64,000 nucleotides of DNA from Sphyrna mokarran. Lineage: Eukaryota. The stretch covers positions 19,158,001 through 19,222,000 of the forward strand of contig JAGIQG010000029.1 in NCBI GenBank assembly GCA_024679065.1. The letters run 5' to 3'. Both the position numbers and the translations under genes were made by a program. The notes under the pieces were generated by a model. That model saw only the letters and a program-made list of their open reading frames with translations, was not told the origin of the DNA and searched no databases. Positions within the stretch are counted from its first letter, which is position 1; every line of letters begins with the position of its first letter. Shown in pieces: positions 16,132 through 51,970 of the stretch.

Positions 16132-16374
16132 TGAGAAAATCCCCTAGTCGCCACACTCTGATGCCTGTTCTGCTACACTGAGGGAGAATTTAGCATGGCC
16201 GATGCACCTAACCACACGTCTTTCGAATTGTGGGAGGAAACCAGAGCACCTGAAGAAAATCCACGCAAACCCAGGGAGAACATGCAGACTCTGCAAAGAC
16301 AATGACACAAGCTGGGAATTGAACCCGGGTCCAGGAGCTGTTAGGCAGCAGTACTAATGACTGTGCCATCATGC
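16132..16374 (-). mobile_element. V-SINE, alternative tail (partial)
   Basis: Same head and core; tail begins ggcgactaggggattttc on the minus strand. Confidence 0.85.
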
Positions 16375-17295: not shown

Positions 17296-17369
17296 CATGC
17301 TGTGGCTCAGTTGGTTAAAGCACTTGTCTAGTAAACAAAAGATCCTGAGTTCAAATTTCAGTGATGCTT
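17296..17369 (+). pseudogene. tRNA-Thr(AGT) pseudogene
   Basis: gtggctcagttggttaaagcacttgtct-AGT-aaacaaaagatcctgagttcaaatttcagtgatgctt aligns end to end with vertebrate tRNA-Thr(AGT), anticodon 17330-17332. Stem and B-box positions carry substitutions. Confidence 0.8.
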
Positions 17370-17725: not shown

Positions 17726-18988
17726 TTAGAACATAGAACATAGAACATTACAGCACAGAACAGGCCCTTCGGCCTTCGATGTTGCGCCGACCAATATAAA
17801 AAGCAATGACCCTCCAAACCAAACCATTCCCTTCTCTTCCATATACTTATCAACTAACCTCTTAAACGCCACCAAACTTGGCGCATCTACAACTGCTGCA
17901 GGCAGGGCATTCCACTCCCGAAACACCCTTTGGGTAAAGAACCTACCTCTGATATCCGTCCTATAACTATCACCCCTTAATTTAAAGCTGTGTCCCCTCG
18001 TGCTAGCTTTCTCCATCATAGGAAAAAGGCTATCACTGTCCACCCTATCTAAACCTCTAATCATCTTATACGTTTCGATAAGGTCTCCTCTTAGCCGCCT
18101 CCTTTCTAACGAAAACAACCTCAAATCCCTCAGCCTCTCTTCATAAGACCTGCCCTCCATACCAGGCAACATCCTGGTAAACCTCCTCTGTACCCTCTCC
18201 AATGCCTCCACATCGTTCTTCTAATGTGGGGACCAGAACTGCACACAATACTCCAAGTGCGGCCGCACTAGAGTTTTGTACAGTTGCAACATGACGTTGC
18301 GGCTCCGAAATTCAATCCCCCTAACAATAAAAGCTAAGACTCCGTATGCCTTCTTAACAACCTTATCGACTTGACTGCCTACTTTCAGGGATCTATGCAC
18401 AAATACACAAGATCCCTCTGTTCATCAACACTATTAAGAATCCTACCATTAGCCCTATACTCTATACATTTATTATTCCTGCCATAGTGCATTACCTCAC
18501 ACTTTTCCACATTAAACTCCATTTGCCACCTCTCGGCCCAGCTCTGCAACTTGTCAAGTCTCTCTGCAAACTATAACACCCCTCTTCACTATCTACCACT
18601 CCACCGACTTTAGTGTCATCTGCAAATTTACAAATCCATCCTTCAATACCCTCATCCAGATCATTTATAAAAATTACAAACAGCAGGGGCCCCAAAACAG
18701 ACCCCTGAGGTACACCACTTGTCACCGAACTCCACGATGAATATCTCCCATCAAACACCACCCTCTGTGTTCTATCTGCTAGCCAATTCCTAACCCAATT
18801 AGCTAAATCACCCTCTATCCCATATATCTGCATTTTCTGCAGAAGTCTTCCATGGGCCACCTTATCAAACGCCTTACTAAAGTCCATATATACCACATCA
18901 ACCGCCTTACCTCCATCCACCTCTTTGGTCACTTTTTCAAAAAACTCAATGAGGTTAGTAAGGCACGACCTACCCTTCACAAAACCAA
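17726..18988 (-). mobile_element. young CR1 LINE, 5'-truncated in RT
   Basis: ORFs 18492-18980 (GRSCLTNL...[10 protein letters not shown]...FADDTK) and 17726-18211; (TTCTATG)n tail; closely matches the 12433 copy. Inserted in a Harbinger-like element (about 17565-19200). Confidence 0.96.
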
Positions 18989-20269
18989 ATATATATATTA
19001 AATATATAAAATAATGTAAACTATCATATAAATGCTAGTCCCCACCGATTTCCAGCGTGGAGCAGACCACATTGGAAATCCAGTGCTGGGAAACACTAGC
19101 AGGGTGCAAATGCTCGCAGGAATCCCGTGACTCGCCCTCTGTGTGATTTTCCCAGACCACTGTGCTAGAAAATTAGTGCAGCAGAAGGACAGAATTGCCT
19201 CCGTGCAGTGTGAGAGAAAAGGTTGGTGAGCTTCAGGTACAACATAGCCAAGTGAGAACATGATGTGATGAAGAGGAAGAGCTGGATTGATAAAGGGCGG
19301 GACTGGGTATTATATATTCCTGGACACAAGGGTCGAGAATTTTGAAGTGTCATGAAGATTCCACAGATGTTTAAAAGAGGCAGACAGAGCCAAGATGCAG
19401 AAGTCCCATTCCCATTTTTGCTGGTAGTGAAAAGGGAGCGGGGTGTGTTTCTCATGGCAGGAAAATCAAACACTGTGCTTGGCCATTTAAACTCAGTGAG
19501 TCAACAGACCTCACTTTGGCACGTCTAGGAGCCTTAAACCGCAGTATGGAAATCACAAGTTGGAGTAGAAGTAAACGCTCTTGAAGGGCACTTACAGACT
19601 GTACATCTGTCATATCGGAAGTTTTATGCATCACCTCTTTTTTAAACTTTAAAAAATTGGCTGCAGGTGTCAGTGAGAGTTAGAATAGTCACAGCTGGAT
19701 CACCTAGATCATTGTGTAAGAAAGAAAAACAATTGCATCTGGTCATGTTGTTTCAATCTAGCTGTTTGTTGACATTTATTTAATGGCTTTTATTATGCCA
19801 CTGTGAATGTTTGGCTAAGTTTCAAAACCTACAACAATCTTAGCTTAGCCTTTTAGTTCATAACCTGATAGACACCTTAAAAGGCTATGAAAGGAATAGT
19901 TGTTTTTGGTATCGGGCTGAATATAAATTTGTTTGATTATTTTTGTAAGAGATTAATCTTGGGGAAGGGACTTAAAAGGGGATTGTGGAGATTTGTTACA
20001 TTGTTTCTGCTATTTAAGATTTGCCTTACTAAAATTTCTCTCAAAGCAGCCTCATTATTTAATAATGAAACTCGTTATGTAATATTTGACCGTGTGAAAA
20101 AATTTGCTGTATGTTTATACTTAGTCTCTTTTTGTGGGTTTCTCCTGCAGCAAAAACAGTGTTGCGGTAATGTTAGTTTGTACTTGTCAGTATTTCAGAA
20201 TGAAGGGCAATTGGGAAGCATGATCTTCAAAGAAATGGGAGAACAATCAAAACAGCAAACACAACTAGA

Positions 20270-22560: not shown

Positions 22561-23769
22561 CTTGTTTGTCGGTGTTTCAAGTAATCTTCTTGGGGTCCAA
22601 CCTCACACCATTTGATCTTCTCCCTGCCATCCACTGTTCATCATTCTCCTCCACCTCTCTGCCCTTTTGCCCTTGCATAACCCCCTTTCCCCTTGCCCCT
22701 TTGTTTTCATCAATCCCACTGCCACCTCGCACCCACCGCTCCAGTTGAACTTCAGTTGGTTGAAGTGGAAGATGCATGAGTCACATAGCACAGTGCTTTC
22801 CCTGGAGCTGGAAGGCAGGAAATTTTTTAAAAAATTATTATTCCAATTCAATCAAATCAAGTCCAATTCAGGGATTCAACAAGTTGAGACATTCCTGATC
22901 CAAGCTGACAAGACAGGGCTCTCACCTCCTGTCTTGGGTTTAAACTATGTGATCCAAGCTGATTGGGCTAGGCATTGCACTTCCTCCAAGGTTTGATCTG
23001 ATTTGCATCTTAGCCAAAAGGCCGAGATGCCACTTTTAAAAATTGCTTTAAATGAAGCTAAAATGCAACTAATGATTTCAACCAAGCACAGCATGTTGAT
23101 ACCACTCTTGATCTTAGCCAAAAGGCTAAGAAGCGATGGAAACCAAGAAATAGTCTGCCTCAGTAGAGAGATGCTCAGTGCAAAAGAAGCAGCGTGGTGC
23201 TATGCCAGGTACGCCTTTTATGTTGTACTTACCTCAAAGTCTCAAAAGAACTGAGGTTCTATTTGTGCACATCAGTCCTTTTCAAACGGATTTGAGGACA
23301 AGATAATTTCCCACTGGTGTAACACAAGATCAGAAGGTGTGGGGAGATTCTGGCAAGCAGTTGATTTAATGAACTTTCTTGACATGCAAATAGCAGTCAT
23401 GCCAACAGTCAGTGGAAAAATTAAGCCGCCATTGGTAATTGCAATGTGTTATTATGCCAGGAGGATATAACTTTTCACTTCCCACTAGATTCTCTGCTCC
23501 CACCCACCACCAAACCTGCTGCAGACAGGATGAGAGAATTCCAAATTATTAAATCCAAAGAAAGAAAGCGAAATATGTTCAATTATTGTGAAAACTGGTG
23601 CAGGAAAGAAGAAAAATGGCAGGTAGCAAAAACTGGAAAAAAAGCAACAAATATGGAAACACAGAAGCTGATCATCCAACTCAGCAGCCTAATCCTGCTT
23701 TCTCCTCATAATCTTTGATCCCATTCACTCCAAGTTCTACATCTAGCCTCCTCTCAAATACATTCAGTA

Positions 23770-25730: not shown

Positions 25731-26000
25731 TAGTCATAAGTAGGCTTACATTAACACTGCAATGAAGTTACTGTGAAAATCCCCTAGTCACCACATTCCA
25801 GCACCTGTTCAGGTATAATGAAGGAGAATTTAGCATCTAACCAGCACATCTTTTGGACTGTGGGAGGAAACCGGAGCATCCAAAGAAAACCCACACAGAT
25901 GCAGGGAGAATGTGCAGACTCCATACAGACTATGACCCAAACCAGGAATCGAATCCAGGTTTCGGGAGCTGTGAGGCAGTAGTGCTAATTGTGCCACAAT
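25731..26000 (-). mobile_element. V-SINE, alternative tail
   Basis: taggcttacattaacactgcaatgaagttactgtgaaaatcccctag tail plus V core and head. Confidence 0.88.
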
Positions 26001-26598
26001 GGTCAAAGTGGCCAAATCAATGGGCAAGGATCCAGCCTCATGAGTCCCACACCCATTTTATCACATCAACATGAAAATGAGAAATATCCAGTGAAAAGCA
26101 AAACAGAGCTTTGTCTTAGCTGAATAACGGGTGGCAAACCACAGAAACTTTTCTACATATTTAATACAAAATATTCTGGAAACATTTAACAAGTCAGGCA
26201 ACATTTGTGGAGAGAGAAATAAAGCTAACAATTCAGGGCAATGATTTTTAATGGACATAGACCTCATAAAAGATAATTCACAAAAGCCATTTAACAATAC
26301 TGAATAAGTAGTAATTCTCAGAGCATAAAGCATCAAACAATAATGTATTGCTGCTTACTCCTGATTCCATCTAATTCACAATCAACATTTTCATCAGTGG
26401 TGGAAAACACACCGTTATATCTTAAAATAAATGGCACCTATGAGTGTGTGACCACATTAGCAATATTAGTACACAGTTAAGTTTCTGTTGCAGAAAACCT
26501 CAGCTGTACAATATTTTATAACTGTATGCATATACTAATGTGTACCTTTGGCTCCTAAGGCATCAGGGGCGATTCTCCCAGCCCACTGCGCTATTCTA

Positions 26599-27078
26599 GC
26601 ACAGTAAGAAATCTCACAACACCAGGTTAAAACCCAACAGGTTTATCTGGTAGCAAACACCACTAGCTCTTGGGGCTCTGCCCCCTTCATCAGGTGAGTG
26701 GGGAGTTCTGGGTTCAGGGTTCATGTCACACTATTTGTAACCCCCATGATTTGCCTGGGCTCGCAACATCTCACTTACTGTCCTGTCTGCCGAAAATATA
26801 CATCTCTTTAACCTATGCTTAATGCTATCTCCACTCACATTGTCCGCACCTTTAAGACTTGATTAGCTATAAAGGCTCACATTCTAATCAGTATTCTGTA
26901 AATTGAGTGTGTGCCTTTATATGCCCTATTTATAATCTGAACTCCCCACTGAACTGACGAAGGGGCAGAGCCTGAAAGCTGATGGCGTTTGCTACCAAAT
27001 AAACCTGTTGGACTTTAACCTGGTGTTGTGAGACATCTTACTGCATTTACCCCAGTCCAATGCTGGCATTTTCACATC
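26599..27078 (+). mobile_element. Penelope-like element 3' end with inverted partial pseudo-LTR
   Basis: GFMSHYL* (26717-26740) matches the PLE ORF C-terminus after GIY-YIG; arms 26599-26700 and 26950-27045 are inverted repeats; terminal ccccagtccaatgctggcattttcacatc. Confidence 0.82.
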
Positions 27079-27820
27079 TGTTGTGGCAGTGCAGTGGGCT
27101 GGGAAACATCAGTGGAAGTCATTTAGCGGATTCCCCACTGGGAGCTGCAACCTCCACACGTCTCTGAGGATGGGATTTCTGGCATTGTCAACACTGTGCT
27201 ACAAATCGGCAAGGAGCTGACTTACATCTGAAATGTTGATTTCCATCCAGTTAGTGGGCCCGCCGACTTCAGTCCACACACTCACAGCTTCCTCCATCTC
27301 CCTCCTATCCACCCACCATCCCTCCACCCACTTCCCCCCATCTCTCAACTAGGAGTGGTTCTCTCCAGCAGAGTTTACAACACTTCCCCACTAACAGGAA
27401 ATTGGCGATTGACCCCAATAGAATGGAGGGAGGACTTGAAGCCCCCCCTCCACGAGATTGGGGGAAAAAGGGGTGCACCATGGATATTGCCAGCCTGGCA
27501 GTGCTAGCCTGCCCCCCAGAACTGCTCAAGGGGCAAAGTAGGAATGCCCAAGGGGATAGGGCATTGTCAAAGGGGCAGGTCAGTGGGTGCATGGGTGGGA
27601 AGCGTCCTGCTGCTACTCCGCACTTGGGATCAGTGACAGGGGGAGATGGAGGTGATTGGGGCTGATCATCTGAATCGGAGTTGGCTGCCGGTGGGGGAAA
27701 GACTCTGGCTGCTGGGTGGGTCAGGGCTGAGCGGGGGGAGGATTTGGGGAGATTGAGGCTGGACGAGGAGGGTTGGGGGGAACATCGGGCCTTATCCAAA
27801 GATATCTGGAGTCCTGCAAT

Positions 27821-27865
<45 letters not shown>
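27821..27865 (+). repeat. poly-G run (45 nt)
   Basis: Counted directly; a 21-G run also occurs at 4059-4079. Confidence 0.95.
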
Positions 27866-27867
<2 letters not shown>

Positions 27868-30059
27868 GCGGTGGTGGTGAGGGGCTCACGCATGCAACAA
27901 TGCAGGGTCATGTGGCTGGCCATTGATCAAGCTGGCAGTGCAGGGAAACTGCACATGCACCGATCTCGGTACTGACAGATTGGCACATATACAGTGGTCC
28001 GCTCAGCACTATGCTGCTGGCCTCTCCAGCAGGGAATAGGCCATCCTTCCCAATTTTCAGCATGAATCTAGCTAAGGTAATCTGCTGTGTTCAGAATGTT
28101 GGAGATACATTTTGAAAATCCTGCCAAATACCAACATGATTTACTCCCATTTTTAAGTGAATTTGGCATGTACAATTTTTTTGGGAAAATCACCTCATCA
28201 TCTTGAGCACTTTTTGCCCATATAGCACTGGCTCTATTATGCACAGTGTGCCCACTGTATAGTGAAGGAAAAGTGAAAAGCATGGACCATTAAAACTATG
28301 ATCCTGTAATGTTCCTAAACCCTTTCAGCTGTTGTGGTTTGAGCAGTCACTACAATTTGATTAAATTAAATCCACTAGCCATCTATGAATTCAGATTTCT
28401 TGTTTGCTCGATTATTTGTGTATCTGATCCAAGTTGACACCGGAATTAAGTTTCTTTTTCTGTCTTTCAGCAATGATTGCCAAAACAGAAATAGTTTTTT
28501 CATTTTGTTAGCCTTGGTTGGATAAGAGCTGTAGGTAATCTCCGTTAAGTAAAACACTTTCCCTTAAATCTGAGAAGCAAAGATCGTCAGTGTCTGAAAC
28601 ACTGTGAGATATAGTCTCTTTAGATTTCATGTATTTGTCATCAAATAAACTGTGTTGAAATATTTTAGGGTCTAACAAACACTCCCCCAAGTGTTGAGAC
28701 TGTCAGACTAGTGAGAGTCATTGCCAACATTGAATAGCTTACTACTCATTGGCACATAAGTGGCTTAGGTTGAAGAAAAACTTGCTACCATTAGTAATGT
28801 GTTTATGATCCCTGCTTTGTTTTCTTTATAAAGATAAATGCATATTTCCCTTGACTTCTGCACTTTCTTGGCCCAGAGTAGAAATAAACCTAAACTTCTC
28901 TGGTCCTAATATTATGCAAAACTAATTATGTTGTGCCCTGTGACTGCAACCTACACTAATATGTGACACACAGGTTATTAATTCTATTGTATTCTGAGAT
29001 AATTTTATCTCTATCCTAATCTATGCCAGGTCTGTCATCAATCACTGCAAGAGGAAATATAAAAGCCCTATGGACAGTGAATGCAGTGATAAAAGTTGAT
29101 GAGATAGTCTCTGTGTTCAATGTTACTCTCCCCTCTCAATAAAATTAAGGCCTCTGTCCATGAAATGGTAATTTAACTCATCTATGTCATATTTTCAGTG
29201 GATGACAAATTGTAAAACCTGGTGCAGCCAATTACTGCTGGTTTTTAATTCCAAATAAACAGTAATTGCTATACAAAGTCAGAACAGCATAATTGTTGAC
29301 TTAATTGGGATCCCACAACACTATTCACAAGCCTTCCATAATTAGTTGCATTCAAAATACAGTTGTCATAACATAAGTGCGAAGTGCACTTAAACATATA
29401 TTTCATTTTATAAATCTTCACAGAAATTTTTAAACAATTCTGTTAATTACATACTGCAAATTGTATCTTAATTATAAATAGAAAGATTATTCCTGAATTT
29501 TAATTTACTTTTTTACATTCAACTGAGGTAAACTCACAGGCATGTAAACTAAATTGGCCTTTACAGCACTTTTTTATCAGATGCTTATGTAAGACTCGAA
29601 GATCAGGGCCATGATGTCTGCTCAAACCTCTGACAAAAGGGTGCCAGTTCAGTAAAACAATATATATGTATCAAACAGCTACCAGCAGCATGCAGAGTAG
29701 CGAGATAATGAGATAAATGAGTATAACAACATTACTTTGAATTCACTGCTGCCATTTTGCAACTCCACACTTCAGCCAGCACCCTAACATGCTTAACTTA
29801 AAGTCAAACAGTTGAACACAATGTTTTATGGAATGAAATATCATTCCCTCGGTCCCCCAAACACCCAACCCTCTCCTGCCCTAGCTCCTTTCCTCAACAT
29901 TATTGAAAGGGATCTGGAAGTATTTTCTCTTTGATTGCTGGATTATTCCTTCTGGCTGCTAATGCAACTGTACACATCTTTGGGGGTTTTCTATAATTAG
30001 CTGAAATTTAAATACACTCTAAGAAGTGTTAAGTCATTTGTGGTACAATATAAAATTGT

Positions 30060-31660
30060 GTGTTTTTAAACATGAGAAGTCCAGTAGGGCTTCAGTGTTT
30101 AAGATATCATCTCCATGACTAAAAAAGAACTTGGAATGGAAAGGAGAGGATCTAGTTGCTATGGTTCAAGTAGGAATCAATGACAAAGATAGAAGAGATG
30201 GAGTTTGAAGAACTGGGTTCAAAATTAATGAGCAGACCTCAAGTGTTACTACTTGCGTCATATGCAAATTATATTAAATGAGTGGCTCCAAGGATTTTGT
30301 AAGAGAAGGGATTTCAATTCATGAGACACAGACAGAAGTACTGGGGAAAGATGGAGCTGCTCTGCTGGAAGACAATTGTTACTAACCGTGAAACCCAGGG
30401 CAAGATCTGGGAACTAGGGTTCAAATCCCACCATAGCAGATGGTGAAATTTTCACTTTAAAAATGTCTAATGACTATGAAATAATAGTTGTTAAAAAAAC
30501 TCATCTGGTTCACTCATCAAAAGGGGGAAATCTGCTAGCCTTACCTAGTCTCACTAATATGCGACTCCAGATACTAAGCAAGCGTGATTAACTCATAAAT
30601 GTTCTCTAAAATGAAAGGTAGTTAGGGATGGGCAATAAATGTCAGTCAGCAAAGTCCACGTCCTGTAAATGAATTTTAAAACATAAATGGAGGCTGGGAT
30701 CAGCATCCTGACAAATTGCACAATAAAGGCTGTATGTAGAGCTTTAAACTAAAAAGGGGCAGGAATGGTGAAGGTGAAGATAAATTTAGAAATTTAGGAA
30801 GGCAACAGATCAGTTTAATGATTTGAATAAAGATAGGTAATGTTGAACAGGAAGGGTTAGAGAGCTAAATGATAAAAGTAAATCGATGCAAAAAATAGTG
30901 ATAAAAATATAATTAAAGGCTCTTTATCTGAAGGAATGAAGCATTTGTAATAAGATAGACAAACTAGCACCAATGGAGATAAATAATTTAGATCAAAGGG
31001 CTTTACTGAGACCTGAGTTGTAAGCTGACCAAAGTTGCAATATTCCAGGATGCACATTTCAAGGAGCTCAGCAGAATTTGAAAGGAAGAGGAGGAACTCT
31101 GATTATTGAGGATGATGTAAAGACAATAGTAAGAGAAGATCTTGGTCCAGAAGGTCAGGAAGTAGGAACAACATGTGTGGAGATTAAAAATAACATGCAC
31201 CAGAAAATGCAGGTAAGTGGTTGATAGACCTTCTAGCAGTTGTTCTATTATTGGACAGAACATGAAGCAAGAAATAATTGTTGCTTGTAAATGTCATAAT
31301 TGTGGGGGACTTTAATTCTCAATAGACTGTACAAATCAAATTAGCAAAGTTTGTAGAATGCTTTCACAAGAGTTTCCTGGAAGAATACATTGTGGTATCA
31401 AATAAGGATTATGCTATCTTCTATTTAGTATTGTGTAATCTCATAACAAAATATCCAACAGGAAAAGTAACCATAAGACAACTGAATTTCATGCTACATT
31501 TCAGGATAACATACTCTATTTCAGATCAGGAATCTTAAACTTAAACAAATCAATTACATACGTACAACAGGGGAGCTAATGATGGTTGATTGGGGAAATA
31601 GACTAAAAGGTATGGTGAACCACTTAAAGGAACAATTCAAAATATTCAACAAACATAAAT
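30060..31660 (+). mobile_element. old CR1 LINE 5' portion: ORF1 esterase (SGNH) and ORF2 APE remnants, interrupted by SINE-B
   Basis: VGIND, EFEELGSKL.SR, NEWLQ and YWG (ORF1 esterase); ALYLKE*SICNKIDKL and VGDFN (APE). Confidence 0.7.
30385..30682 (+). mobile_element. SINE-B (tRNA-like head + family-B LINE tail)
   Basis: B box gggttcaaatccc; core gaaatctgc...ccttacctagtc; tail tagggatgggcaataaatg...aatgaatt. Confidence 0.75.
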
Positions 31661-31719
31661 ATAGTTTTAAAAATTGCACTTAATGAAGGTTCTGCTAGTG
31701 AGAATGCTGTCTCTAACAC

Positions 31720-32100
31720 AAGACCAATTTACTCCAATGATCCCAAGACTTGAGGAGGGAAATGTGGAAGCATTTTTCATTTCATTTGAGAAGATTACAA
31801 AGCAAATGAAATAGTCAGCAGAAAGTTGGACTCTGCCAATGCAGAGGAGGTTAACAGACAATCTAAGCTATGCTATGAGATTTCAGCCAATTATGAAGTA
31901 ACTAAGAAGGAGCTCATGAGTTACTTCCTGAGGCTTATCATCAGAAATTCTGAACCCTCTGAAAGCATCCTGAATAAATGTACAATGAATTTGAAAGGAT
32001 CGAGCAACTCGCTTTTGACTAGTCAACTTAGTCACTTAAAATCAGACCATCAATGAAAACCCATGAGAGATAATTCACCTTGAGGAGTTCAAAAACTCAT
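31720..32100 (+). pseudogene. Gypsy (Gmr1-like) gag remnant
   Basis: IPRLEEGNVEAFFISFEKITKQMK*SAESW, ELLPEAYHQKF and EIIHLEEFKN match vertebrate Gypsy gag motifs (P.F.E.DVE.FF..FEK.A...WP...W; PEAYRQKFR; LEEFK). Confidence 0.72.
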
Positions 32101-32599
32101 TCCCTGGGCAGTATTTTCCAGCTGTGCTTGCCCCAACGCCAGAAATCCCTACTCAAGGTAAATGTCTACTCCAGCTACGATTTCCTTGGGGCATGTGGGG
32201 ATGGGATAATTCTGCCCCCTGTCTCTGTAAAGACCAATGTGGCAAAACAAAGGGTGCCCAATGTGAGACAACAGCCCATAAAAATGAACCCCTTATTTGT
32301 TTAAACTCAAGAAGGCTTTTCTGTCCGAGATATTTGTAACTAGTAGTTAACTACATAACATTTAAAGGCACATTTATCCTTTCAAAAATCAAAACAACAG
32401 ATAGAGTCAACTAGGAAATGAGATAAAGTGGGGAACTCCTTTCACCCTTTCTCACCTGGTCATTATTACAAGCTGTAGGAATTTTTACAAGTACATATTG
32501 TTGTGATCCTACAGACCACCAAAGTTTCTGTAAGGTCCAGTTAGGAACCAATAACATCTTACAGTAGACAAAATTTGAGATTCAAGATATTCTTTAAGG

Positions 32600-32770
32600 G
32601 TGATGGATATCTGGAACTCGCTGCTGGGAGCAGTGGTGGAAGCAGATACAATAGTGACTTTTAATGGACATCTTGACAAATACATGAATAGGATTGGAAT
32701 AGAGAAGGGGGTTTTAACTCAATCAAGCAGCATGGTCCTGTTCCTGTGTTGTAATTTTCTTTGTTCTTTG
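32600..32770 (+). mobile_element. short CR1 3' end
   Basis: WNSL...VVEADTIVTF..HLDKYM followed by cctgttcctgtgttgtaattttctttgttctttg. Confidence 0.8.
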
Positions 32771-34332
32771 AATAAGATTCCATGGGTTTTGAACAAACAA
32801 AAACAAAGGTAAAAAAAGTAAAACAATTTGCCACATCAATTCATACTCTTAACATACAGAGTGGAATTTTAAGCTCATGTTAGCCATCACACTAAATGGT
32901 GATGTCGGCTCAAAATCCCATGAATGTCAAAAAATTAGATGCTTGTTGGCAACACCTCTTTTCCCAATGTTTTACATCTTTCGCCCATGACACAACAAGG
33001 TTTCTGTCCAGAAAAGTTAGAAACTTAATTTAAATACATTAGCATCTAAGTTACGAACAATCCCACCAGGAATGCCACCCTCTTTGAATATACATTAGGT
33101 ACTATCATGACATCACACCAGCATTGTTTACAACAACTTCATAAAATTATGAAGGCATCCTTACCTCTGAAGAGGATATCGGAGGTGAGTGTGCAGGTCA
33201 CCAATGCTTACCAGGGTGTCGAATGGATAGAAAGCACCGGAAAGGACTAACCAGCTAAGTCATTCATGGGGTCTTGGCAGTGGTGCGGGGAGTATTTGCT
33301 ACTTTCAGGCTTTAGTGGGCCTTCATTATTGTGGACGTCTAGTTTGGCATTTGGTGTAGATTTTGTGCTTCTTGGATCTCCCTTGTTGTTGTCTAAGCAA
33401 TGTTTTCTTGGATGGTTTATCTTTTTAGAGTGGCAGCTTCAAGTTGTTGGCAGCAGGTAAATTCACATAGTTGGCACAGGAGGTGATTGAGAGGTCCCAG
33501 GGTAGGGCTCAATGCCAGCCTGCATGGGCAGTGTGGAGGACTCTGACATGGGATAGTAATATGCTCCTTGGAGCCAAAAGGTCACTGATGCAGAGGGGAA
33601 GTTGAGTGCAGTCACGTTAATCCTCCACCCTCAGGTTGCAATGAGCTATTTGGATGTGCAATGTCACTGGTCATGGAGTCCAGGCTTTCAGGGATGTAAT
33701 CATGGGAAGCTTGTTTGATCCACAATACATGAGAGCTGGGAAAATGAAGGTGAAGTCTCAGAATTAAGCTGACTGCAAATTGGAGTCTTGAAATGAATCA
33801 GATGAACTGTGCCAGCTACAGGGGAAGCCACTTCCCTAATCAGATCCCTGATGAGTCAATTATGCCCATTAACAGAGTATTGTAATGCATGATTTTGTCA
33901 CTGATTGGCACTCACTAGTTAATTCTTTGACACCTGAGCCCTCGAGTTGCCTCATCATGTGGTGCCTCATCATGTAACTTGCCATCCACAACCTCGGGCT
34001 TGACGTCATTCGTGGCCTCCAGGAGGAGCTGATGTGCAGTATGAGCACACTACTGCTTGCACAGCATTTTACATCAGCCTTACACCCCCAAACCCCACTG
34101 GGGACTGGAGCCCCAAAGTCAGAGCCACCTCACAGAAATGCTCTCTGCGCCCTTTGATATTGTAGGAATATTCTGTAGGCTGCTGCTGTTTTGGGCAGTT
34201 TCTCTTTAAGGGGCTGCCCTTTTTACTTTATCCCTTAATTTGTCTAACTTAGTTTAATTGTTCACTTTAAAAAAGTTGGGTCTTGAGTCCTCAAGCAATG
34301 AATTCTGTTCCTCATACATCTAATAGAGAGGT

Positions 34333-34552
34333 CATGATGTGGAGATGCCAGCATTGGACTGGGGTGGGCACAGCAAGAAGTCTCATAACACCAGGTTAAA
34401 GTCCAAAGTTTACTTCGAATCATAAGCTTTCGGAGTGCTGTTCCTTCATCAGGTGAGTGATCAGCATTCATCTGATGAAGGAGCAGAGCTCTGAAAGCTC
34501 ATAATTCCAATTAAACCTGTTGGATTTTAATCTGATGCTGTGAGATTTATTA
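34333..34552 (-). mobile_element. PLE-derived fold-back element with two hammerhead cores
   Basis: Terminus catgatgtggagatgccagcattggactgggg; inverted arms around 34460; 12-bp TSD taatagagaggt (34321-34332) / taattgagaggt (34553-34564). Confidence 0.82.
34468..34504 (+). ncRNA. minimal type I hammerhead ribozyme motif
   Basis: CUGAUGA-A-[GGAGC aga GCUCU]-GAAA-GCUC; conserved core, 5-bp stem II, palindromic AGCU stem III, NUH = CUC at 34498-34500. Confidence 0.65.
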
Positions 34553-36564
34553 TAATTGAGAGGTGACACAGATGTGTTTCATGGCAGGATTTCATGTCCC
34601 TGGGAAGTCAGCATACAGTTCAAGTCAAAGCACTCACATGCCCTCAGTCCTCACCCTTGGACTGAGCCACTAGGACTACATAAGGTAGATGCCCATCGGC
34701 CAGATATAGTTGGGAGAGGCTAGTGTGGGGACATGGCCACCATATGAGAGAAAAGGGAGTGATGCTCATTGGAAAGAGCTCACATAGGGAAACGTGCATA
34801 GGTGAATGGCCCATACCTTGACAGGGATATGGGTCATTGACAGAAATCCTCAATGCTCACATTTCTGTTTCCTTCCTTCCTTGAGACAATCATGGTAAAA
34901 ATGTTATCTTGTGTTGCCTACTCAATGACCTAAACAACAAGCTTCTATTTGAAATCAGCTCTGATGACCTGTTAAACTCTTCACAGAGGCTGACTGAACT
35001 GTGTATTTTGCTTTAGATAGATTTTCTATCATTTGCATTTTCCTTAGATTGAATAAGATAATGTATGTTGTGGTCCGACAGTAATGATATCAATACACAG
35101 CTGCTAATGGATACAACTATCCTCTTGCAGAGGATGGCAAGGCTCACTGAGTTATTGCAGACAGGGCCACACACGGAGGTGATATGGAGCAGACACCACC
35201 AGCCATAGGTGTACTGGAGGAAAGCATCATACCTTCAGATGAAATTTCTTCCTTCCATCAGCCTTCATTAGCTTAGCAAGTGTTTAAAATTCACTTCGAT
35301 GCTTTTGAAGGTTGAAATAATATTTAACCTCAAACGTAACTGTTTTTCTTAAAGTGCACACAATTTTTAAATTTAGATATGCAGGTCAGCTTTTCTGCTT
35401 CCATTATTAAGCTTGCATACCAAACACAGCTATGAATAATAAGATGCAAATGCACCACAACTATAGGAGCCCTATGACAATTATTAAGAAAAAAACCTTA
35501 GATCTTTGACTTTCAGAGATAATAGTAATATGTTCAACCAGGATCAAATTAACTGTAGTCAGTTCCAGTCAACTGAAGGTTCATGGCAGTCATGATTTTG
35601 TAAATAAATCATTTTGATTTCTGTGGGTCAGAAGGGTGAGGCTTTTGTCATGAAACCCATTGATCCTGGTGTCCTTGAATGCTGAATCAGAAGTCGGTGG
35701 AGGCTGCAACATTTAAGGTGCAGAATGTTCCAATGCTTTTTAGATTTGGTTCCTGCTTAGTAACAAGTATGGGACCATCAGAGTGTTTTGATAGATCATC
35801 CAATTAATTCAAGGATCAATGACAGCTCTACTTGAGGCAGTCAGTTTTAGAGGATCTACCAGCCAACATGTGCATAGAGACATAAACAGATAGAGCTTCC
35901 AGTGAAGTTAAATTACAGAAAGAGCTATGGGAAGCAGACTTTAAAGAAGGCTATTGGACCAAAGATATCCCTTTAGAGCAGTAGTATTCTGTCTGGCACG
36001 GCCATAAATCTGAAAGTGTGCTTGTAAGTGGTATTGAATGTACTTGGGAATCCAGGGAGAAGGAATTTTGGAAGGTGTAAATGAAACCTTGTAAGGTGGA
36101 TCATTGATAAAACCATTCAAGATCTTCAAAAGGTGAAGCTGGGAGTCCCTCATGAGTCAAAGATTCAACAAGATTGTTTGGATTTGGTCTTTACTGACAT
36201 CTGGCTGGGTTTTTGAGAAATTCATGGACTCTATTTTGATTCCATTTATCATTTTCTTTGAAGTGTGGTGTATTCGAGGACAGTTTGTCTACTAATTCAC
36301 ATATACCTCATGCTTATCCAGAATGTTAGAGTATATGATACATACTGTAAATTGTTTCATTTTTCTGAACTTGTGCAACAAAATTTGTTTTTCTTCATTC
36401 AAAACCCATGTGTTGAATTCCAACCGTTATCTACTTTAACAAAACATTATCGGACATTAACCTGATCTCCATCCATGTCCTGGGGTGCTGGGCATGGGTT
36501 ATAACACTTTATAAGAATAGCACAGATAGTGGAGATTAGTCAAGACAGCAGAAACATTGTTAAA

Positions 36565-36900
36565 ACAAGAAAGAACTTGCAATCACAAATGCACATTTTA
36601 TGACCTGAAATGGTTGCAAAACATTTGACATACATCTGCAATATAGAGAGACATAATACCTATATTATAGAAAGAAAGGTCCCATAAATGACAATGAGAT
36701 AAAGGACCAAATAATTTGTTTCTGTGATGTTGGCGAGATAACAATAAAGCAGCAAACAGGTCATGAGGGAGAAACAGTGACCCTCATATTGCTCAGATAG
36801 TTGAAAAGTTAATCTTTCCTTATTAAGTATCTGTTTAATAGGCTGGTGTATGCATGTTCTTTTTGTTTGAAACATCACACAAGATGAACTGGAACTGAGA
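36565..36900 (-). mobile_element. ancient Deu-domain-type SINE (SacSINE1/AmnSINE1-like), highly diverged
   Basis: aagaaagaacttgca (L2-type tail, reversed), caatgagataaaggaccaaataatttgtttctgtgatgttgg and gggagaaacagtgaccctc resemble recalled Deu-SINE blocks. Confidence 0.5.
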
Positions 36901-37517
36901 CTGATTGTACCCAATGGTTTTTACCATATTTGGTGTTCTGTATGTTTTAACCTATGTGGAACATAGCAGCTCATGAACTGAAACTATTAAAGCATTGATT
37001 GTTATTAACTCAGAGAGATTAAAATACATATATATCACTAGGACCAAGAAGGTAACTTTAAACTGAACCACAGACAGTAAAATGATAATTTTGAACTGGA
37101 TTCCTGTTTAACATTGGGCCTTCATTGGCAAATGGACTTGCCATAGTTTTCTGCAGGTGTACTTCTAGATCTGCACAAATCTGTCAGAAATTTTTCCGGA
37201 AGCAGGTAAGGTGGCCCCACATACCCACACTCCAACTGAGGCCATCAAATAACCAGTTAAAGGAGGAGGTGATGGCCTAGTGATATTATCACTTGACTAT
37301 TAATCCAGAAACTCAGCTAATGTTCTACTAGGGCCTGGGTTTGAGTCCCACCATGGCAGGTGGTGGAATTTGAATTCAATAAAAAGTATTGGAATTAAGA
37401 ATCTACTGATGAACATTAAACTATTGTTGATTGTCAGAAAACCTGTCTGGTTCATTAATGTCCTTTAATGAAAGAAATCTGCTGTCCTTTCTTAGTATGG
37501 CCTGCATGTGTTTCTGG

Positions 37518-37742
37518 TTACACAGATGCCGGCGTTGGATTGGGGTGGTAAGAACTCAGTAAGAATTTAGCAACACCAATTTATAATCCAACCGATTTAT
37601 TTGATAGTAAAAAAGCGAGCTTTCAACACTCTGTGTCTTCCTCAGGCATTTGCCTGAGGAAGACACAGAGTGTTGAAAGCTCGCTTTTTTACTATCAAAT
37701 AAATCGGTTGGATTATAAATTGGTGTTGCTAAACTCTTACTG
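37518..37742 (-). mobile_element. PLE-derived near-perfect hairpin insertion
   Basis: Arms 37557-37648 and 37651-37742 (92 bp, one mismatch, 2-nt spacer); terminus agatgccggcgttggattgggg; duplicated target tgtgtttctgg (37507-37517 / 37741-37751). Confidence 0.88.
37651..37686 (+). ncRNA. minimal type I hammerhead ribozyme motif (exact mirror on the minus strand at 37613-37648)
   Basis: GC-CUGAGGA-A-[GACAC aga GUGUU]-GAAA-GCUC-GC; predicted cleavage after 37682; only 2 bp of stem I remain. Confidence 0.65.
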
Positions 37743-39364
37743 TGTTTCTGGAGCCATAGCAATGTGGTTGAGTCTTAACCATCCTCAGGCAACTCGGGAT
37801 GGGCAATAAATGCTGGCTAGCCAGACATCCATTTCCCCCAAATGAATTTGTTAAAATGGTTCTGAACGGTCTTGCCTCATCCGAGAGTGCCCTCCCACTC
37901 ACCCCTTGACTTTTCAATACAATATCAACCCCCTTGCTTTTAATTTCCGACTCCACCATATCCCCCAACTCCAACACCAACCCTTCCACCATCCCTCCTC
38001 CCCCCACCTGAGCCAAACTTTCTTCTGCTCCTGCTAAAGTTGAATTTACCCTCCCCTCCACAAGAATCCAAATTTGCAACAGTAACATCCTTCTAAGGAA
38101 CACAAGTCAAATAACAAGTGAAGATTATTTCACCTCAAAATAAGAATAACAATCTTACTTAACAACCTGTCATGCCATTATGCATGAAAAATATTGAATA
38201 TGATGGAATAGGACATGGTTTCCTCTTATTGAGATATATTTTCAGTAATTTAACAGAGATCTGTTGATACTATATTTCATTTAATAGAATGAATATTATC
38301 ACAACGTGGAAGATAAGTAGGGGAGATGCCTCGTGATAATGGCATCATCTTTAAGTGAGAGAGAACATGCGAATTTCATGCTTTTCACAAACAAGTTGGC
38401 TCGCTATAAAAAGCACACAACTATCCTTAAATCAGTGTCATCAAAAATGGCATAAGGCTGAGGGATACAAAAGGGAAGAAAGCAATGTTTATCCTTTGTG
38501 TGCTTTTATTGCAATTCATCTTTCCTAGAATATTGCAGTCTCTTTTTCAGGAAAGAAAGATTCTAGTTAATCAATCAAACCAACTCAATCCAGGGAGTGA
38601 TACATGACAATTCATTTAGCAGCATAACAGAATAAGATGAGTAGACATAAATTACTTTCCCCCATTGATTAGAGTTTTGCTTAAAGCATTTTTTTAAATG
38701 AAGATAACATACAACATATGAAATAATTAGGTGCCTCTACTAATCCAAAAGTTATCGGGATATGACCAGATCAAAAATATTGAATCCTATGAATTATATC
38801 TAATGAATGAAGAGTCACATGCAAATTTGACATTTTGATTGTAACATATTTATCAGGAATCATTGAAATAGATTAATGTCCTTCAATGGCTTGAAAGTTG
38901 AAATTTTTATTTTATACATGAGACCTCAATTATTTTAACTTCTTGTTCAGAACATAATTTACTAATTCACAAAAATAGACTTTTGCATGATCATTCAGAC
39001 TTAAGTAGATCAAATTTTGAATTTTAGCTTTTCATTTTTATCCTCTTTTAACTTCATAAAAGCCAGTGTTAAAATTTGAACATCTTAGCCTATAAATCAT
39101 TAAAAGCAATATTAATGGGTGATGCTTAAACATGTTCATGTGTCATTGCTCTGCTTATTAATTAACTGTAGTATCACCAATTTAAAAATAGGTTTAAAAA
39201 GCAAGTTAAATGGAAATGGCAAAGGACTGTTGAGATAAATATGTTAACACAGAAGGCCCAATTTTACCATCAAGTTGTGCCCGTTTTCGGGTGTGAAAAC
39301 TTGGTAAAGTCAGGTGTGAGGCAAGTAGCGCAATCCACACCAGACTCTGTGTCTGTTCTCCCTT

Positions 39365-39483
39365 GTAACACCAGTTTTAAATCCAACCAATTTATTTGAT
39401 CAAATAAATCGGTTGGATTTAAAACTGGTGTTGTCAGACTTCTTACTATGTTTACCCCAGTCCAACGCCGGCATCTCTACATC
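39365..39483 (+). mobile_element. minimal PLE fold-back insertion (no hammerhead)
   Basis: Spacerless 66-bp palindrome 39367-39432 (one mismatch) plus terminus ccccagtccaacgccggcatctctacatc; 13-bp TSD tctgttctccctt / tctgttttccctt. Confidence 0.82.
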
Positions 39484-39609
39484 TGTTTTCCCTTTACCAA
39501 GGGCCAAAAATGGCCACGAGCGGGACCACATCCAAAACAGAATTCATTTGCATGCATTTAAATTGACTTAATGGGTTGCATGCCTGAACATAACAGCACA
39601 ATTTGGGAA

Positions 39610-42089: not shown

Positions 42090-42270
42090 TACGAAATAAG
42101 AGCAGGAATGGGTCACTTGGCTCTTTGAACTTACTCTGCCATTCAATAACTTCATATCTGATCTGATTGTAACTTCACACCTATTCCCAGTATTCTTTCA
42201 CCTCCTTGTCTATCACTGCTCTGTCTACCTCTATCTTGAAAATATTCAAAGACATTGCTTCCACTACCTG
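42090..42270 (-). mobile_element. old CR1 3' end, target of the young CR1
   Basis: gaaatagagcaggaatgggtcacttggctctttgaacttactctgccattcaataa, similar to 63610-63680. Confidence 0.6.
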
Positions 42271-42275
42271 TGTAC

Positions 42276-43499
42276 TTTTTTGAGAAAGTGACCAGAGAGG
42301 TGGATGGGGGTAAGGCGGTTGATGTAGTATATATGGACTTTAGTAAGGCGTTTGATAAGGTGGCCCATGGAAGACTTCTACAGAAAATGCAGATGTGTGG
42401 AATAGAGGGTGATTTAGCTAATTGGATTAGGAATTGGCTGGCAGATAGAAGACAGAGGGTGGTGGTTGATGGGAGATATTCATCGTGGAGTTCGGTGACG
42501 AGTGGTGTGCCTCAGGGGTCTGTTTTGGGGCCCCTGCTGTTTGTAATTTTTATAAATGATCTGGATGAGGGTATTGAGGGATGGATCAGTAAATTTGCAG
42601 ATGATACTAAAGTTGGTGGTGTGGTAGATAGTGAAGAGGGGTGTTTTAGTTTACAGAGTGACTTGGACAAGTTGCAGAGCTGGGCCGAGAGGTGGCAAAT
42701 GGAGTTTAATGTGGAAAAGTGTGAGGTAATGCACTTTGGCAGGAACAATAAATGTGTAGAGTATAGGGCTAATGGTAGGGCTCTTAATAGTGTTGAGGAA
42801 CAGAAGGATCTTGGTGTATGTGTCAATAGATCCCTGAAAGTAGGCAGTCAAGTGGATAAAGTTGTTAAGAAGGCATATGGAGTCTTAGCTTTTATTGGTA
42901 GGGGGATTGAATTTAGGAGCCGCAGCATCATGTTGCAACTGTACAAAACTCTAGTGCGGCCGCACTTGGGAGTATTGTGTGCAGTTCTGGTCCCCACATT
43001 ATAAGAAAGATGTGGAGGCATTGGAGAGGGTACAGAGGAGGTTTACCAGGATGTTGCTGGTATGGAGGGCAGGTCTTATGAAGAGAGGCTGAGGGATTTG
43101 AGGTTGTTTTCGTTAGAAAGGAGGCGGCTAAGAGGGGATCTTATTGAAGCATATAAGATGATTAGAGGTTTAGATAGGGTGGACAGTGATAGCCTTTTTC
43201 CTAGGATGGAGAAAGCTAGCACGAGGGGACACAGCTTTAAATTAAGGGGTATGAGTTATAGGACGGATATCAGAGGTAGGTTCTTTACTCAAAGAGTGAT
43301 TAGGGAGTGGAATGCCCTGCCTGCAGCTGTTGTAGATGCGCCAAGTTTGGTGGCGTTTAAGAGGTTAGTTGATAAGTATATGGATGAGAAGGGAATGGTT
43401 TAGTTAGGAGGGGCATTGCTTTTTATTTTGGTCGGCACAACATCGAAGGCCGAAGGGCCTGTTCTGTGCTGTATTGTTCTATGTTCTATGTTCTATGTT
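42276..43499 (+). mobile_element. young CR1 LINE, 5'-truncated in RT
   Basis: ORFs 42255-43004 ([27 protein letters not shown]) and 43062-43403 joined by frameshifts; tail ttctatgttctatgttctatg. Confidence 0.96.
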
Positions 43500-44548: not shown

Positions 44549-44862
44549 AATCATAGAATCCTCACAGTGCAGAAGGCCATTTGGCCCATTGAGTCTGCAC
44601 TGAAAATAATCCCACTTAGGCCCTATCTATCCCTGTAATTCCACACATTTACCCTGTTAGCCCCTGACATTAAGGAACAATTTAGCATGGCCAATCAACT
44701 TAGCCAACATACCTTTGTAGTGTGGGAGGAAACTGGAGCACCCAAAGGAAGCCCACGCAGACCATGGGGAGAATATGCAAAGTCCACACAGACAGTCACT
44801 TAAGCCTGGAATGAAACCCTTGTCCCTGGAGCTGTGACGCAGCAGTGCTAATTACTGTGTCG
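44549..44862 (-). mobile_element. HE1-like V-SINE, CR1 tail
   Basis: aatcatagaatc..acagtgcagaagg tail, V core and head. Confidence 0.88.
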
Positions 44863-45840
44863 TTCTGTTGGCATTTTCATTACGAAATGTACTTGCTTCA
44901 TTAGATGTGGAAATCGTACTTCTCTCAACCAATTACAGTGATGTATATTACCCAAAATCAAAAACATATACTGTAATATACAGTGCTAGTTATTCTCTGC
45001 ATATAATAGTCCAGTGTTGATAAATTATGTCATGGAAGTTCTGATTGATTGGGGTCCAATATGCCATTTGGGCGACATAGAGATCTCATGACTGTGAGGC
45101 TTGAGTCTCATCTAATTACATCAGGTGAGCTGGAGGGGGTAAAGAGGCCTCAAGGCACAACTTAGCTGGTTCAACAAAGGAAAATAAACCACAATTGCCA
45201 CTAGAAAGATAAGTACATATTCTGGAAGCTGATCACAAAAAAACCCCAAAAAGTGCTTGAAGAATCATTCAGAATTCATCATGTTTGTCATTACCAAGTC
45301 ATCATAAAACCAGTAATTGGCGGCAAAGAAGAGATATACCATGAGATCCAATTATCCACAAATATTGGGACAATTTTCCATTAGTCTCAACAAAATTGAA
45401 AAAAAATTGCAACTTTGCTTTGAGCCACTATAGTGAAATTAATTGCCATTCATGAAGTTGCTGGTTTACAGAATTAATATTAATTAATCTTGCCAGAGCC
45501 ACTTCGGGCTGATAATTCATTTCGTAAGAACCCTGTTAATGTTGAGATTTATAGTCCTGTAGTGTCATTCAACCTTGGAAACCGTTAAAACTATGAAGTT
45601 TAACTCTAGCAGTCAGTGATTTTTTTAAAAATATGTATTTTTTCTGCCGCGTAGTATTTTTGTGCCAATCTTGTCATCCTGTAAACTTTGGAATTCTCAC
45701 AGTGCGAAACTAGTTTAACTCTAGGAAATGGAAACTTCCTTTGAGAAAATAACTTTGAAATACAAATAATTTGAGAAATGATAAATGCTCGTGTGCAGGG
45801 AAATTGATCATTTAGAACTTATTTTAGATCAGAACCAGTT

Positions 45841-46158
45841 AGAATAGAATCATAGAATCACTACAGTGCAGAGGGAGACTTTTTGCCCATTGATCTGCAC
45901 TGATCAAAATCCCACCGGGCCCTATCCCCATAACCTCACCTATTTACCCTAGCTAGTCCCCTTGACACTAAGGGACAATGGCCAATCAACTTAACCTGCA
46001 CATCTTTGGATTGTGGGAGGAAACCAGAGCACCTGGAGGAAACCTACGCAGACATGGGGAGAATGTGCAAACTCCACACAGTTGCCTGAGGCTAGAATTG
46101 AACCCAAGTCCCAGGTATTGTGAGGCAGCAGTGCTAACCATTGTGCCATCATGTCATC
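45841..46158 (-). mobile_element. HE1-like V-SINE, CR1 tail
   Basis: Same tail, core and head as 44549-44862. Confidence 0.88.
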
Positions 46159-50974: not shown

Positions 50975-51970
50975 ATCTATGATTCTCATCCTGTCCAAGT
51001 TTTTCTTAAATGTTAAAAGTGAGCCTGCATTTACCACTTCATCCGGCAGCTCATTCCTCACTCCCACCACTCTCTGTGTGAAAAACCTTTCCTTAATATT
51101 CCCTTTAAACTTTTCCCGCTTCACCCTTAAGCCCATGTCCTCTAGTTTTTTTCTCCCCTAGCCTTAGTGGAAAAAGCCTGCTTGCATTCACTCTATCTAT
51201 ACCTACCATAATTTTATACACCTGCATCAAATCTCCCCTCATTCTTCTATGCTCCAGGGAATAAAGTCCTAACCTATTCAACCTTTTTCTGTAACTCAGT
51301 TTCTCAAGTCCCGGCAACATCCTTGTAAACCTTCTCTGTACTCTTTCAACTTTATTAATATCCTTTCTGTAATTAGGTGACCAAAACTGCACATAATACT
51401 CTAAATTTGGCCTCATCAATGTTTTATACAACCTCATCATAACATTCCAACTTTTATACTCAATACTTTGATTTATAAAGGCCAATGTTCCAAAAGCACT
51501 CTTTACAACCCTATCTACCTGTGACACCACTTTTAGGGAATTATGTATCTGTATTCGCAAATACAGATTTGTATCTGTATTTGTATCTGTATCTGAACAG
51601 ATACAGATCTGTTCTACTACACTCTTCAGTGTCCGACCATTTACCATGTATGTTTTACATTGGTTTGTCCTTCCAAAGTGCAATATCTCACACTGGTCTG
51701 TATTAAACTCCATCTGCCATTTTTCAGCCCACTTTTCTAGCTGGTCTGAATCCCTCTGCAAGTTTGAAAACTTTCCTCACTGTCCACTATACCTCCAATC
51801 TTTGTATCATCAGCAAATTTGCTGATTCAATTTACCACATTATCATCCAGATCATTGATAATGATGACAAACAACAACGGACCCAGCACTAATCCCTGTA
51901 GCATGCCATTAGTCATAGGCCTCCACTCAGAAAAGCAATCCTCCATTACCACTCGCTGGCTTCTTCCACT
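50975..51970 (-). mobile_element. 5'-truncated CR1 LINE
   Basis: ORFs 51827-52042 ([24 protein letters not shown]) and 51105-51761 (WQMEFN, RPNLEY.VQFWSP, RGDL..VYKI). Confidence 0.92.

Follow-up and report, generated by a model that had tools for sequence, protein, structure and literature searches.

Short fold-back insertions in Sphyrna mokarran pair two truncated ends of a Penelope-like element and were probably made afresh at each insertion

Endonuclease-bearing Penelope-like elements (EN+ PLEs) leave complex insertions in which an inverted, 5'-truncated copy lies beside a direct copy within a target-site duplication (TSD), and in which a tail of 30-40 bp, running into the start of the open reading frame (ORF), is found at one end only (PMC3846280, PMC8557442, PMC2377424; the layout is likewise described in PMC8969392; papers are cited here and below for the portions covered). 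The origin of their tandem and inverted arrangements has been called undefined (PMC8557442). Junction positions and the concordance of the two arms are not quantified in the covered portions of these papers, one of which attributes the tail to endonuclease resolution. Here, we analyzed four short fold-back insertions, E1 to E4, that share this layout and lie in a 64,000-nucleotide stretch of the Sphyrna mokarran genome (assembly GCA_024679065.1, contig JAGIQG010000029.1, positions 19,158,001 to 19,222,000, hereafter the window).

Metazoan PLEs also carry minimal hammerhead ribozymes, which have a CUGANGA core, an extra base before stem II, a palindromic 15.1-16.1 without a stem III, and stems that vary from family to family. 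A single such motif showed no activity, and dual motifs on opposite strands, 100-700 bp apart, have already been reported as probable truncated PLEs (PMC4209133). Both the layout of our inserts and their opposite-strand minimal hammerheads are already in print. For the anole element PAc, of the Poseidon clade, the PLE protein is a predicted dimer that cleaves both strands and extends them from two internal start sites lying to either side of the tail, and it inserts uncleaved RNA; the hammerhead lies upstream of the start sites and its cleavage is not needed for insertion (PMC11167929). The main text of that study does not describe head-to-head products or the positions at which cDNAs stop. 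Non-LTR (long terminal repeat) retrozymes, which our inserts resemble in being short, non-coding, PLE-derived and associated with type I hammerheads, consist of repeats in head-to-tail tandem that give rise to circular RNA by processing (PMC7229834, bioRxiv 10.64898/2026.07.22.740005). Titles and abstract openings of mostly open-access literature contained no twin-priming account for Penelope; supplementary material to PMC11167929 and to the bioRxiv preprint may bear on it.

All four inserts are genuine mirror-image stubs, two PLE ends back to back (Table 1). Inverted self-matches were found between 26602-26708 and 26939-27043 in E1 (86%), across 34375-34551 in E2 (76%) and across 39367-39432 in E4 (97%), and the arms of E3 are 98% complementary, with a minimum free energy of -163.4 kcal/mol (z -31 against 200 shuffles). 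A common terminus is present on just one arm of each insert, bearing a few substitutions, and E2, E3 and E4 are flanked by TSDs. In all these respects the initial annotation, which had described four fold-backs with a shared terminus and TSDs of 11-13 bp around three of them, was borne out. We consider it likely that each insert consists of two 5'-truncated PLE ends joined head to head, made anew at each insertion by both cut strands priming on the same RNA, with hammerheads that are predicted to be inactive within the resulting hairpin.

The inserts are ends of an autonomous EN+ PLE, in keeping with the PLE origin that had been proposed. A near-full-length element of E3's subfamily at locus L188 (86-5039) comprises an inverted arm of 1.8 kb and a pLTR-ORF-pLTR unit (pLTR, pseudo-long terminal repeat), to which an arm of E3 is 96.9% identical over 127 nt of the pLTR; E4 shows 81% and E1 70% identity to L188. 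The ORF is broken once into frames of 247 and 572 aa, of which the longer contains a reverse transcriptase domain (RVT_1, E 7.5e-9) followed by a GIY-YIG endonuclease (E 8e-5), both above cut-off. Its translation also shows a CX4CxxC linker. Since a CX2-5CxxC linker between reverse transcriptase (RT) and endonuclease marks Neptune/Nematis (PMC8557442), the parent appears, by this motif, to be a Neptune/Nematis-type PLE and thus to belong to another clade than PAc, whose ORF starts in stem II and not, as here, at the tail end. The tail with its continuation occurs at 430 exact sites in the genome, and several of the 30 loci inspected enter one common reading frame. A separate short fold-back lies at L188:5790-6020. 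Direct and inverted pLTRs, 5' truncation, a one-sided tail and, in E2-E4, a TSD complete the likeness to EN+ PLEs. Unlike those of the cited papers, the copies here measure about 35-130 nt (about 370 nt for one E1 arm) and contain no ORF.

Relatives of the inserts are abundant: exact anchors in the 2.77 Gb genome number 1,375 and 2,897 for the E3 subfamily, 474 for the E4 subfamily and 3,417 for a third subfamily. Three samples, drawn mainly from one or few contigs, were analyzed. The E3-subfamily sample, taken from the 1,375 anchors, comprised 91 of the first 100 listed in contig order, minus one reference, and hence 90 tailed arms; two further samples were anchored without the tail (90 of 100 listed places each), and arms with less than 250 nt upstream were dropped. 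An inverted arm adjoined 53 of the 90 tailed arms, 16 had none, and 21 extended past the sampled stretch. TSDs of 8-17 bp flanked 32 of 33 sampled short fold-backs.

The two arms differ in a consistent manner. None of the 47 inverted arms extending to the pLTR end had the tail, most of them ending 35-43 nt short of it, and in the two tail-independent samples mated arms formed tailed/tail-less pairs in 66 of 71 and 31 of 33 cases. We also noted one locus in the E4-subfamily sample that was scored as tail plus tail (two arms), and two loci, L117 and L134, where a copy extending into the ORF has another tail, in inverted orientation, upstream of it. At the same time, both arms of a pair carry the same subfamily variant far more often than expected by chance (26/31 pairs for stem II, 30/32 and 21/24, with shuffled means of 8.5, 15.4 and 11.6). 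Conversion between arms after insertion was considered as the source of these mirrored variants and is unsupported in the E2 family, where arms differ by 0.157 within and 0.155 between copies (24 copies). As these old copies show no later homogenization, the match between arms likely dates from the insertion itself. In three fold-backs (L101, L102 and L104), one site just before a conserved box reads G on the tailed and T on the tail-less arm; this may reflect a source with two differing pLTRs, or query bias.

Arm lengths are matched as well. Across 81 pooled pairs, arm 5' ends differed by a median of 9 nt, compared to 30 nt after shuffling, and the junctions comprised 47 overlaps of 1-10 nt, 10 blunt joins, 22 with filler and 2 longer overlaps. 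The longer arm was tail-less in 48 pairs and tailed in 24 (p = 0.006). A snap-back of a single cDNA was rejected, as either arm may be longer and a tail-less strand cannot template a tail. Arm ends pile up in a zone that begins 25 nt ahead of C3 of the hammerhead core and extends to 8 nt past it, where 37 of 82 at-risk arms end, versus 0-13% in other windows of 35 nt. The rate per nucleotide in this zone exceeded the background in all three subfamilies (2.14 vs. 0.28%, 1.12 vs. 0.67% and 1.40 vs. 0.22%). No pile-up was seen at the cleavage site, including in the subfamily whose stem I is best, and ends there were scattered over 20 nt.

These features can be combined into a putative sequence of events. 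The endonuclease would make a staggered cut, giving rise to the TSDs of 8-17 bp. One strand would then prime at the end of the tail and its counterpart at a point 35-43 nt upstream of this, using the same RNA or RNA from the same source, and both cDNAs would stop at a similar place, most often near the RNA 5' end just upstream of the hammerhead. The cDNA ends would be joined by microhomology or a short filler, with the further-reaching arm setting the flip or flop of the centre, and the stubs would subsequently decay as passengers. PLE transcripts begin in the pLTR (PMC2377424), with the start sites near their front, so that a cDNA templated by the 5' pLTR would reach the end of the RNA within about 90-150 nt and leave stubs like E2 and E3. 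The weakest step is the equation of the stop zone with the transcription start, to which we give slightly better than even chances; upstream of the zone, a TATA box was not conserved across subfamilies when inspected by eye, and a candidate site resembling an initiator or a splice acceptor may lie near -21.

Hammerhead motifs are present in three of the inserts. A scan for CTGANGA..GAAA on both strands of the window gave 12 matches, five of them inside inserts (26954+, 34472+, 34452-, 37654+ and 37645-) and each of these followed by AGCT. Six cores had been claimed previously; five are intact by this motif scan, and the sixth (26693-) has a mutated GAAA. The cuts predicted after 34500 and 37682 are correct by counting. 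The Rfam scan gave no hammerhead family match up to E 5, so the assignment rests on motif and covariation; Rfam matches to mir-553 and sok over E3 were under threshold and reflect the hairpin shape. Cores on opposite strands follow from the palindrome and are hence not independent evidence.

Conservation in the pLTR context supports the minimal-hammerhead reading of the initial annotation: among 300 cores, a set chosen by requiring an intact core, AGCT is present in 289, the extra A in 295 and C, U or A at position 17 in 298. In stem I, putatively compensatory T-A/C-G swaps distinguish subfamilies. Stem I has 6 bp in several of them and 2-3 bp in E3's. Stem II pairing averaged 3.75 bp versus 3.2 bp after shuffling, a weak control given a shuffle maximum of 3.75 with eight types. 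Unlike published minimal hammerheads, E3 has a G-U closing pair and a stem I of 2 bp (as has the plus-strand core of E2), and its motifs approach each other to 8 nt within a perfect hairpin. The E3 subfamily, with its stem I of 2-3 bp, is young and abundant (at least 98 arms), and related subfamilies retain 6 bp, which suggests that its spread did not need cleavage. When folded in silico, the catalytic fold within the fold-back hairpin costs 26.7-52.4 kcal/mol, with a stem II probability of at most 3e-9. The hairpin is thus predicted to sequester both cores and to leave the motifs inactive inside the inserts, contrary to the suggestion of a working self-cleaving motif on both strands, and cleavage of read-through host transcripts by the inserts is unlikely.

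Several points weigh against fresh formation at each insertion as the whole explanation. Two fold-backs, L177 and L181, match at 100% over a core of 229 bp and have an 11-nt filler and a variant confined to one arm in common. They nevertheless carry the tail on opposite arms, their TSDs differ and their flanks are unrelated, so at least one fold-back that already existed was copied, either via RNA or through gene conversion. Samples from few contigs exclude large master families, not many small clones. An RNA 5' end at the stop zone is putative: the RNA data covered were contigs from 18 runs, of which four were compared with a tandem copy, and they gave no information on starts, ends or strand. 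The hot spot is weak in the E4 subfamily (under twofold), and its upstream edge (-20 to -25) is sharp only in the E3 subfamily. The biochemical support is by analogy, as it comes from an element of the Poseidon clade and would have to carry over to the parent's clade. Finally, the correlated arm ends could also stem from central deletion of longer palindromes after insertion.

The best-surviving alternative is re-insertion in trans: on occasion at least, short fold-backs would be transcribed and inserted again as non-autonomous units, and twin priming on the hairpin RNA would yield a heteroduplex in which the centre is flipped with respect to the tail. We regard this as possible rather than probable. 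It would explain the shared centre and one-arm variant of L177 and L181 with their opposite tails, separate TSDs and lack of flank homology, and pLTRs are able to mobilise sequence in trans (PMC3846280). However, this centre has just two genomic copies (L177/L464 at G000:C1:73.385 Mb and L181/L465 at G000:C1:79.090 Mb), both on one contig and separated by 5.7 Mb, an arrangement more in keeping with local gene conversion than with random re-insertion; the flip would also be explicable by hairpin-RNA twin priming or by an assembly error. A second unique centre searched genome-wide was a single copy, and the centres of short fold-backs were distinct in 34 of 35 cases in the contig-order sample of the E3 subfamily. 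The exact junction of E3 is a mixed case: it has 28 genomic copies, with the tail on E3's side in 12, on the opposite side in 14 and unscored in 2, and several of them share variants. It lies, though, on a natural inverted microhomology of the parent sequence and can thus arise repeatedly, and its copies span several subfamilies, with at least four stem II variants that are mirrored in both arms. A more speculative extension would have the two RTs of a PLE dimer travel in file on one RNA from starts separated by about 40 nt, with one target strand as the primer for each RT and the cDNAs joined at their stops; the same process on a hairpin transcript would re-insert a fold-back with flipped centre and yield a self-regenerating palindromic mini-element.

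It is unlikely that the arm ends mark hammerhead cleavage in vivo, with the cut RNAs serving as templates, even though this would account for the turn of E4 (39399/39400), about 12 nt downstream of the parent's cut-site position. Ends after the cut site are more frequent in the E4 subfamily, with its stem I of 6 bp (26/122 arms), than in E3's with 2-3 bp (7/158; Fisher p 2e-5), but truncation in the E4 subfamily is higher throughout (0.89% per nt beyond the cut vs. 0.67% background), and a third subfamily with a stem I of 4-6 bp shows no excess there (8/105; 0.32 vs. 0.22% per nt). The spread of these ends without a peak at the cut site also argues against cleavage, as does the absence of RNA reads ending at the cut site of the anole element in the covered portion of PMC11167929. 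In one locus, L369, both arms stop just before the cut site.

Less probable still is an origin of the short fold-backs from longer inverted insertions whose central parts were lost once they had integrated, with conversion keeping the arms alike. Long palindromes are unstable, and the correlated arm ends and short junction overlaps would fit such a loss. Against it, three subfamilies show an accumulation of arm ends at a single RNA position, also for arms without a nearby mate, and old copies lack arm homogenization.

Finally, a retrozyme-like family, spreading from few masters via hammerhead cleavage and arming host transcripts on both strands, as the second alternative of the initial annotation had it, is very improbable: the best similarity matches of E3 and E2 are full-length look-alikes (best 40 of 769 and 6,501 candidates) and core and AGCT are conserved with stems varying by subfamily, but the query itself selects for such look-alikes, junctions vary in samples ordered by position, inheritance from autonomous parents accounts for the conservation, the hairpin beats the ribozyme fold by 27-52 kcal/mol, E4 has no ribozyme, and all four inserts, unlike retrozymes, are single head-to-head pairs with varied junctions and none contains head-to-tail tandem hammerhead units. 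The clonal families suggested by the look-alikes were rejected because of these position-ordered samples, and in the E2 family, too, centres differ in 23 of 25 cases. A single self-copying family as the main source of the inserts is thus not supported, whereas the other alternative offered initially, independent truncated inserts, is; unique breakpoints, which had been named as the test against a self-propagating family, were largely found, with the shared centre of L177 and L181 as the exception. Formation of two joined ends at each insertion remains our preferred explanation.

Table 1. Coordinates of the four fold-back insertions and their parts in the window
Feature	Position	Strand	Description
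E1	26599..27078	.	Older-subfamily PLE insertion; short tail-less inverted arm and longer 5'-truncated tailed arm
E1 short inverted tail-less arm	26602..26708	-	107 nt; ends about 20 nt upstream of hammerhead core
E1 long arm	26717..27078	+	PLE 3' UTR (untranslated region)/pLTR and tail; 70% identity to L188 3' end
E1 hammerhead core	26954..26981	+	Decayed, with disrupted stem I and a G at position 17
E1 hammerhead core, short arm	26693-26664	-	GAAA mutated (sixth core)
E2	34333..34552	.	Old short fold-back, tail at left; arm-to-arm likeness 76%
E2 left TSD	34321..34332	+	Right copy 34553-34564; 12 bp, 1 mismatch
E2 hammerhead core, tailed arm	34424..34452	-	Stem II down to 3 bp
E2 hammerhead core, tail-less arm	34472..34500	+	Stem II 5 bp, stem I 2 bp
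E3	37518..37742	.	Young short fold-back, 96-nt arms, tail at left; 97% identity to L188 pLTR
E3 left TSD	37507..37517	+	Right copy 37741-37751; 11 bp, exact
E3 one-sided tail	37522..37552	-	Unpaired in hairpin; continues into ORF start in tandem copies
E3 hammerhead core, tailed arm	37617..37645	-	Motif scan
E3 junction	37646..37653	.	At short inverted microhomology of parent sequence
E3 hammerhead core, tail-less arm	37654..37682	+	Stem II 5 bp, stem I 2 bp
E4	39365..39483	.	Shortest fold-back, tail at right, without hammerhead
E4 left TSD	39352..39364	+	Right copy 39482-39494; 13 bp, 1 mismatch

For E1, no convincing TSD was found (the best candidate has 9 bp with 2 mismatches). Its flanks at 26577-26589 and 27090-27102 are, by eye, inverted copies of each other over 13 nt and not a direct TSD, and E1 may lie inside the loop of another hairpin repeat.

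The surroundings of the inserts include further repeats. A Pfam scan of 17 of the 30 long frames in the window returned solely reverse transcriptase and endonuclease remnants of long interspersed nuclear element (LINE) type and no host gene. LINE remnants lie at 12500-15245 (-), 17726-19034, 42240-43495 (+) and 51105-51776, the first three being 91-95% alike, with matches to RVT_1 and Exo_endo_phos at 12519-15245 and 42240-43004. One repeat resembling a short interspersed nuclear element (SINE) is present in many copies on both strands (e.g. 16189-16373, 25733-26005, 44681-44868 and 45972-46154), and a tRNA-like segment at 17303-17361 (+; Rfam 33.5 bits) is probably a SINE head. At 22988-23137 (-), a truncated copy resembling U2 small nuclear RNA, its 5' part seemingly repeated, scored just under the Rfam gathering score (E 7e-6).

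The four inserts themselves are likely ordinary, inert debris and, if transcribed, would be more likely to give rise to long double-stranded RNA than to cleave. The thousands of stubs in the genome provide a read-out for testing the twin-priming model, its features being one tailed and one tail-less arm, variants in common, arms of matching length and a zone ahead of the hammerhead in which the arms stop. Their chief value is therefore as a record of how PLEs likely copy a single RNA to either side of a cut in DNA.

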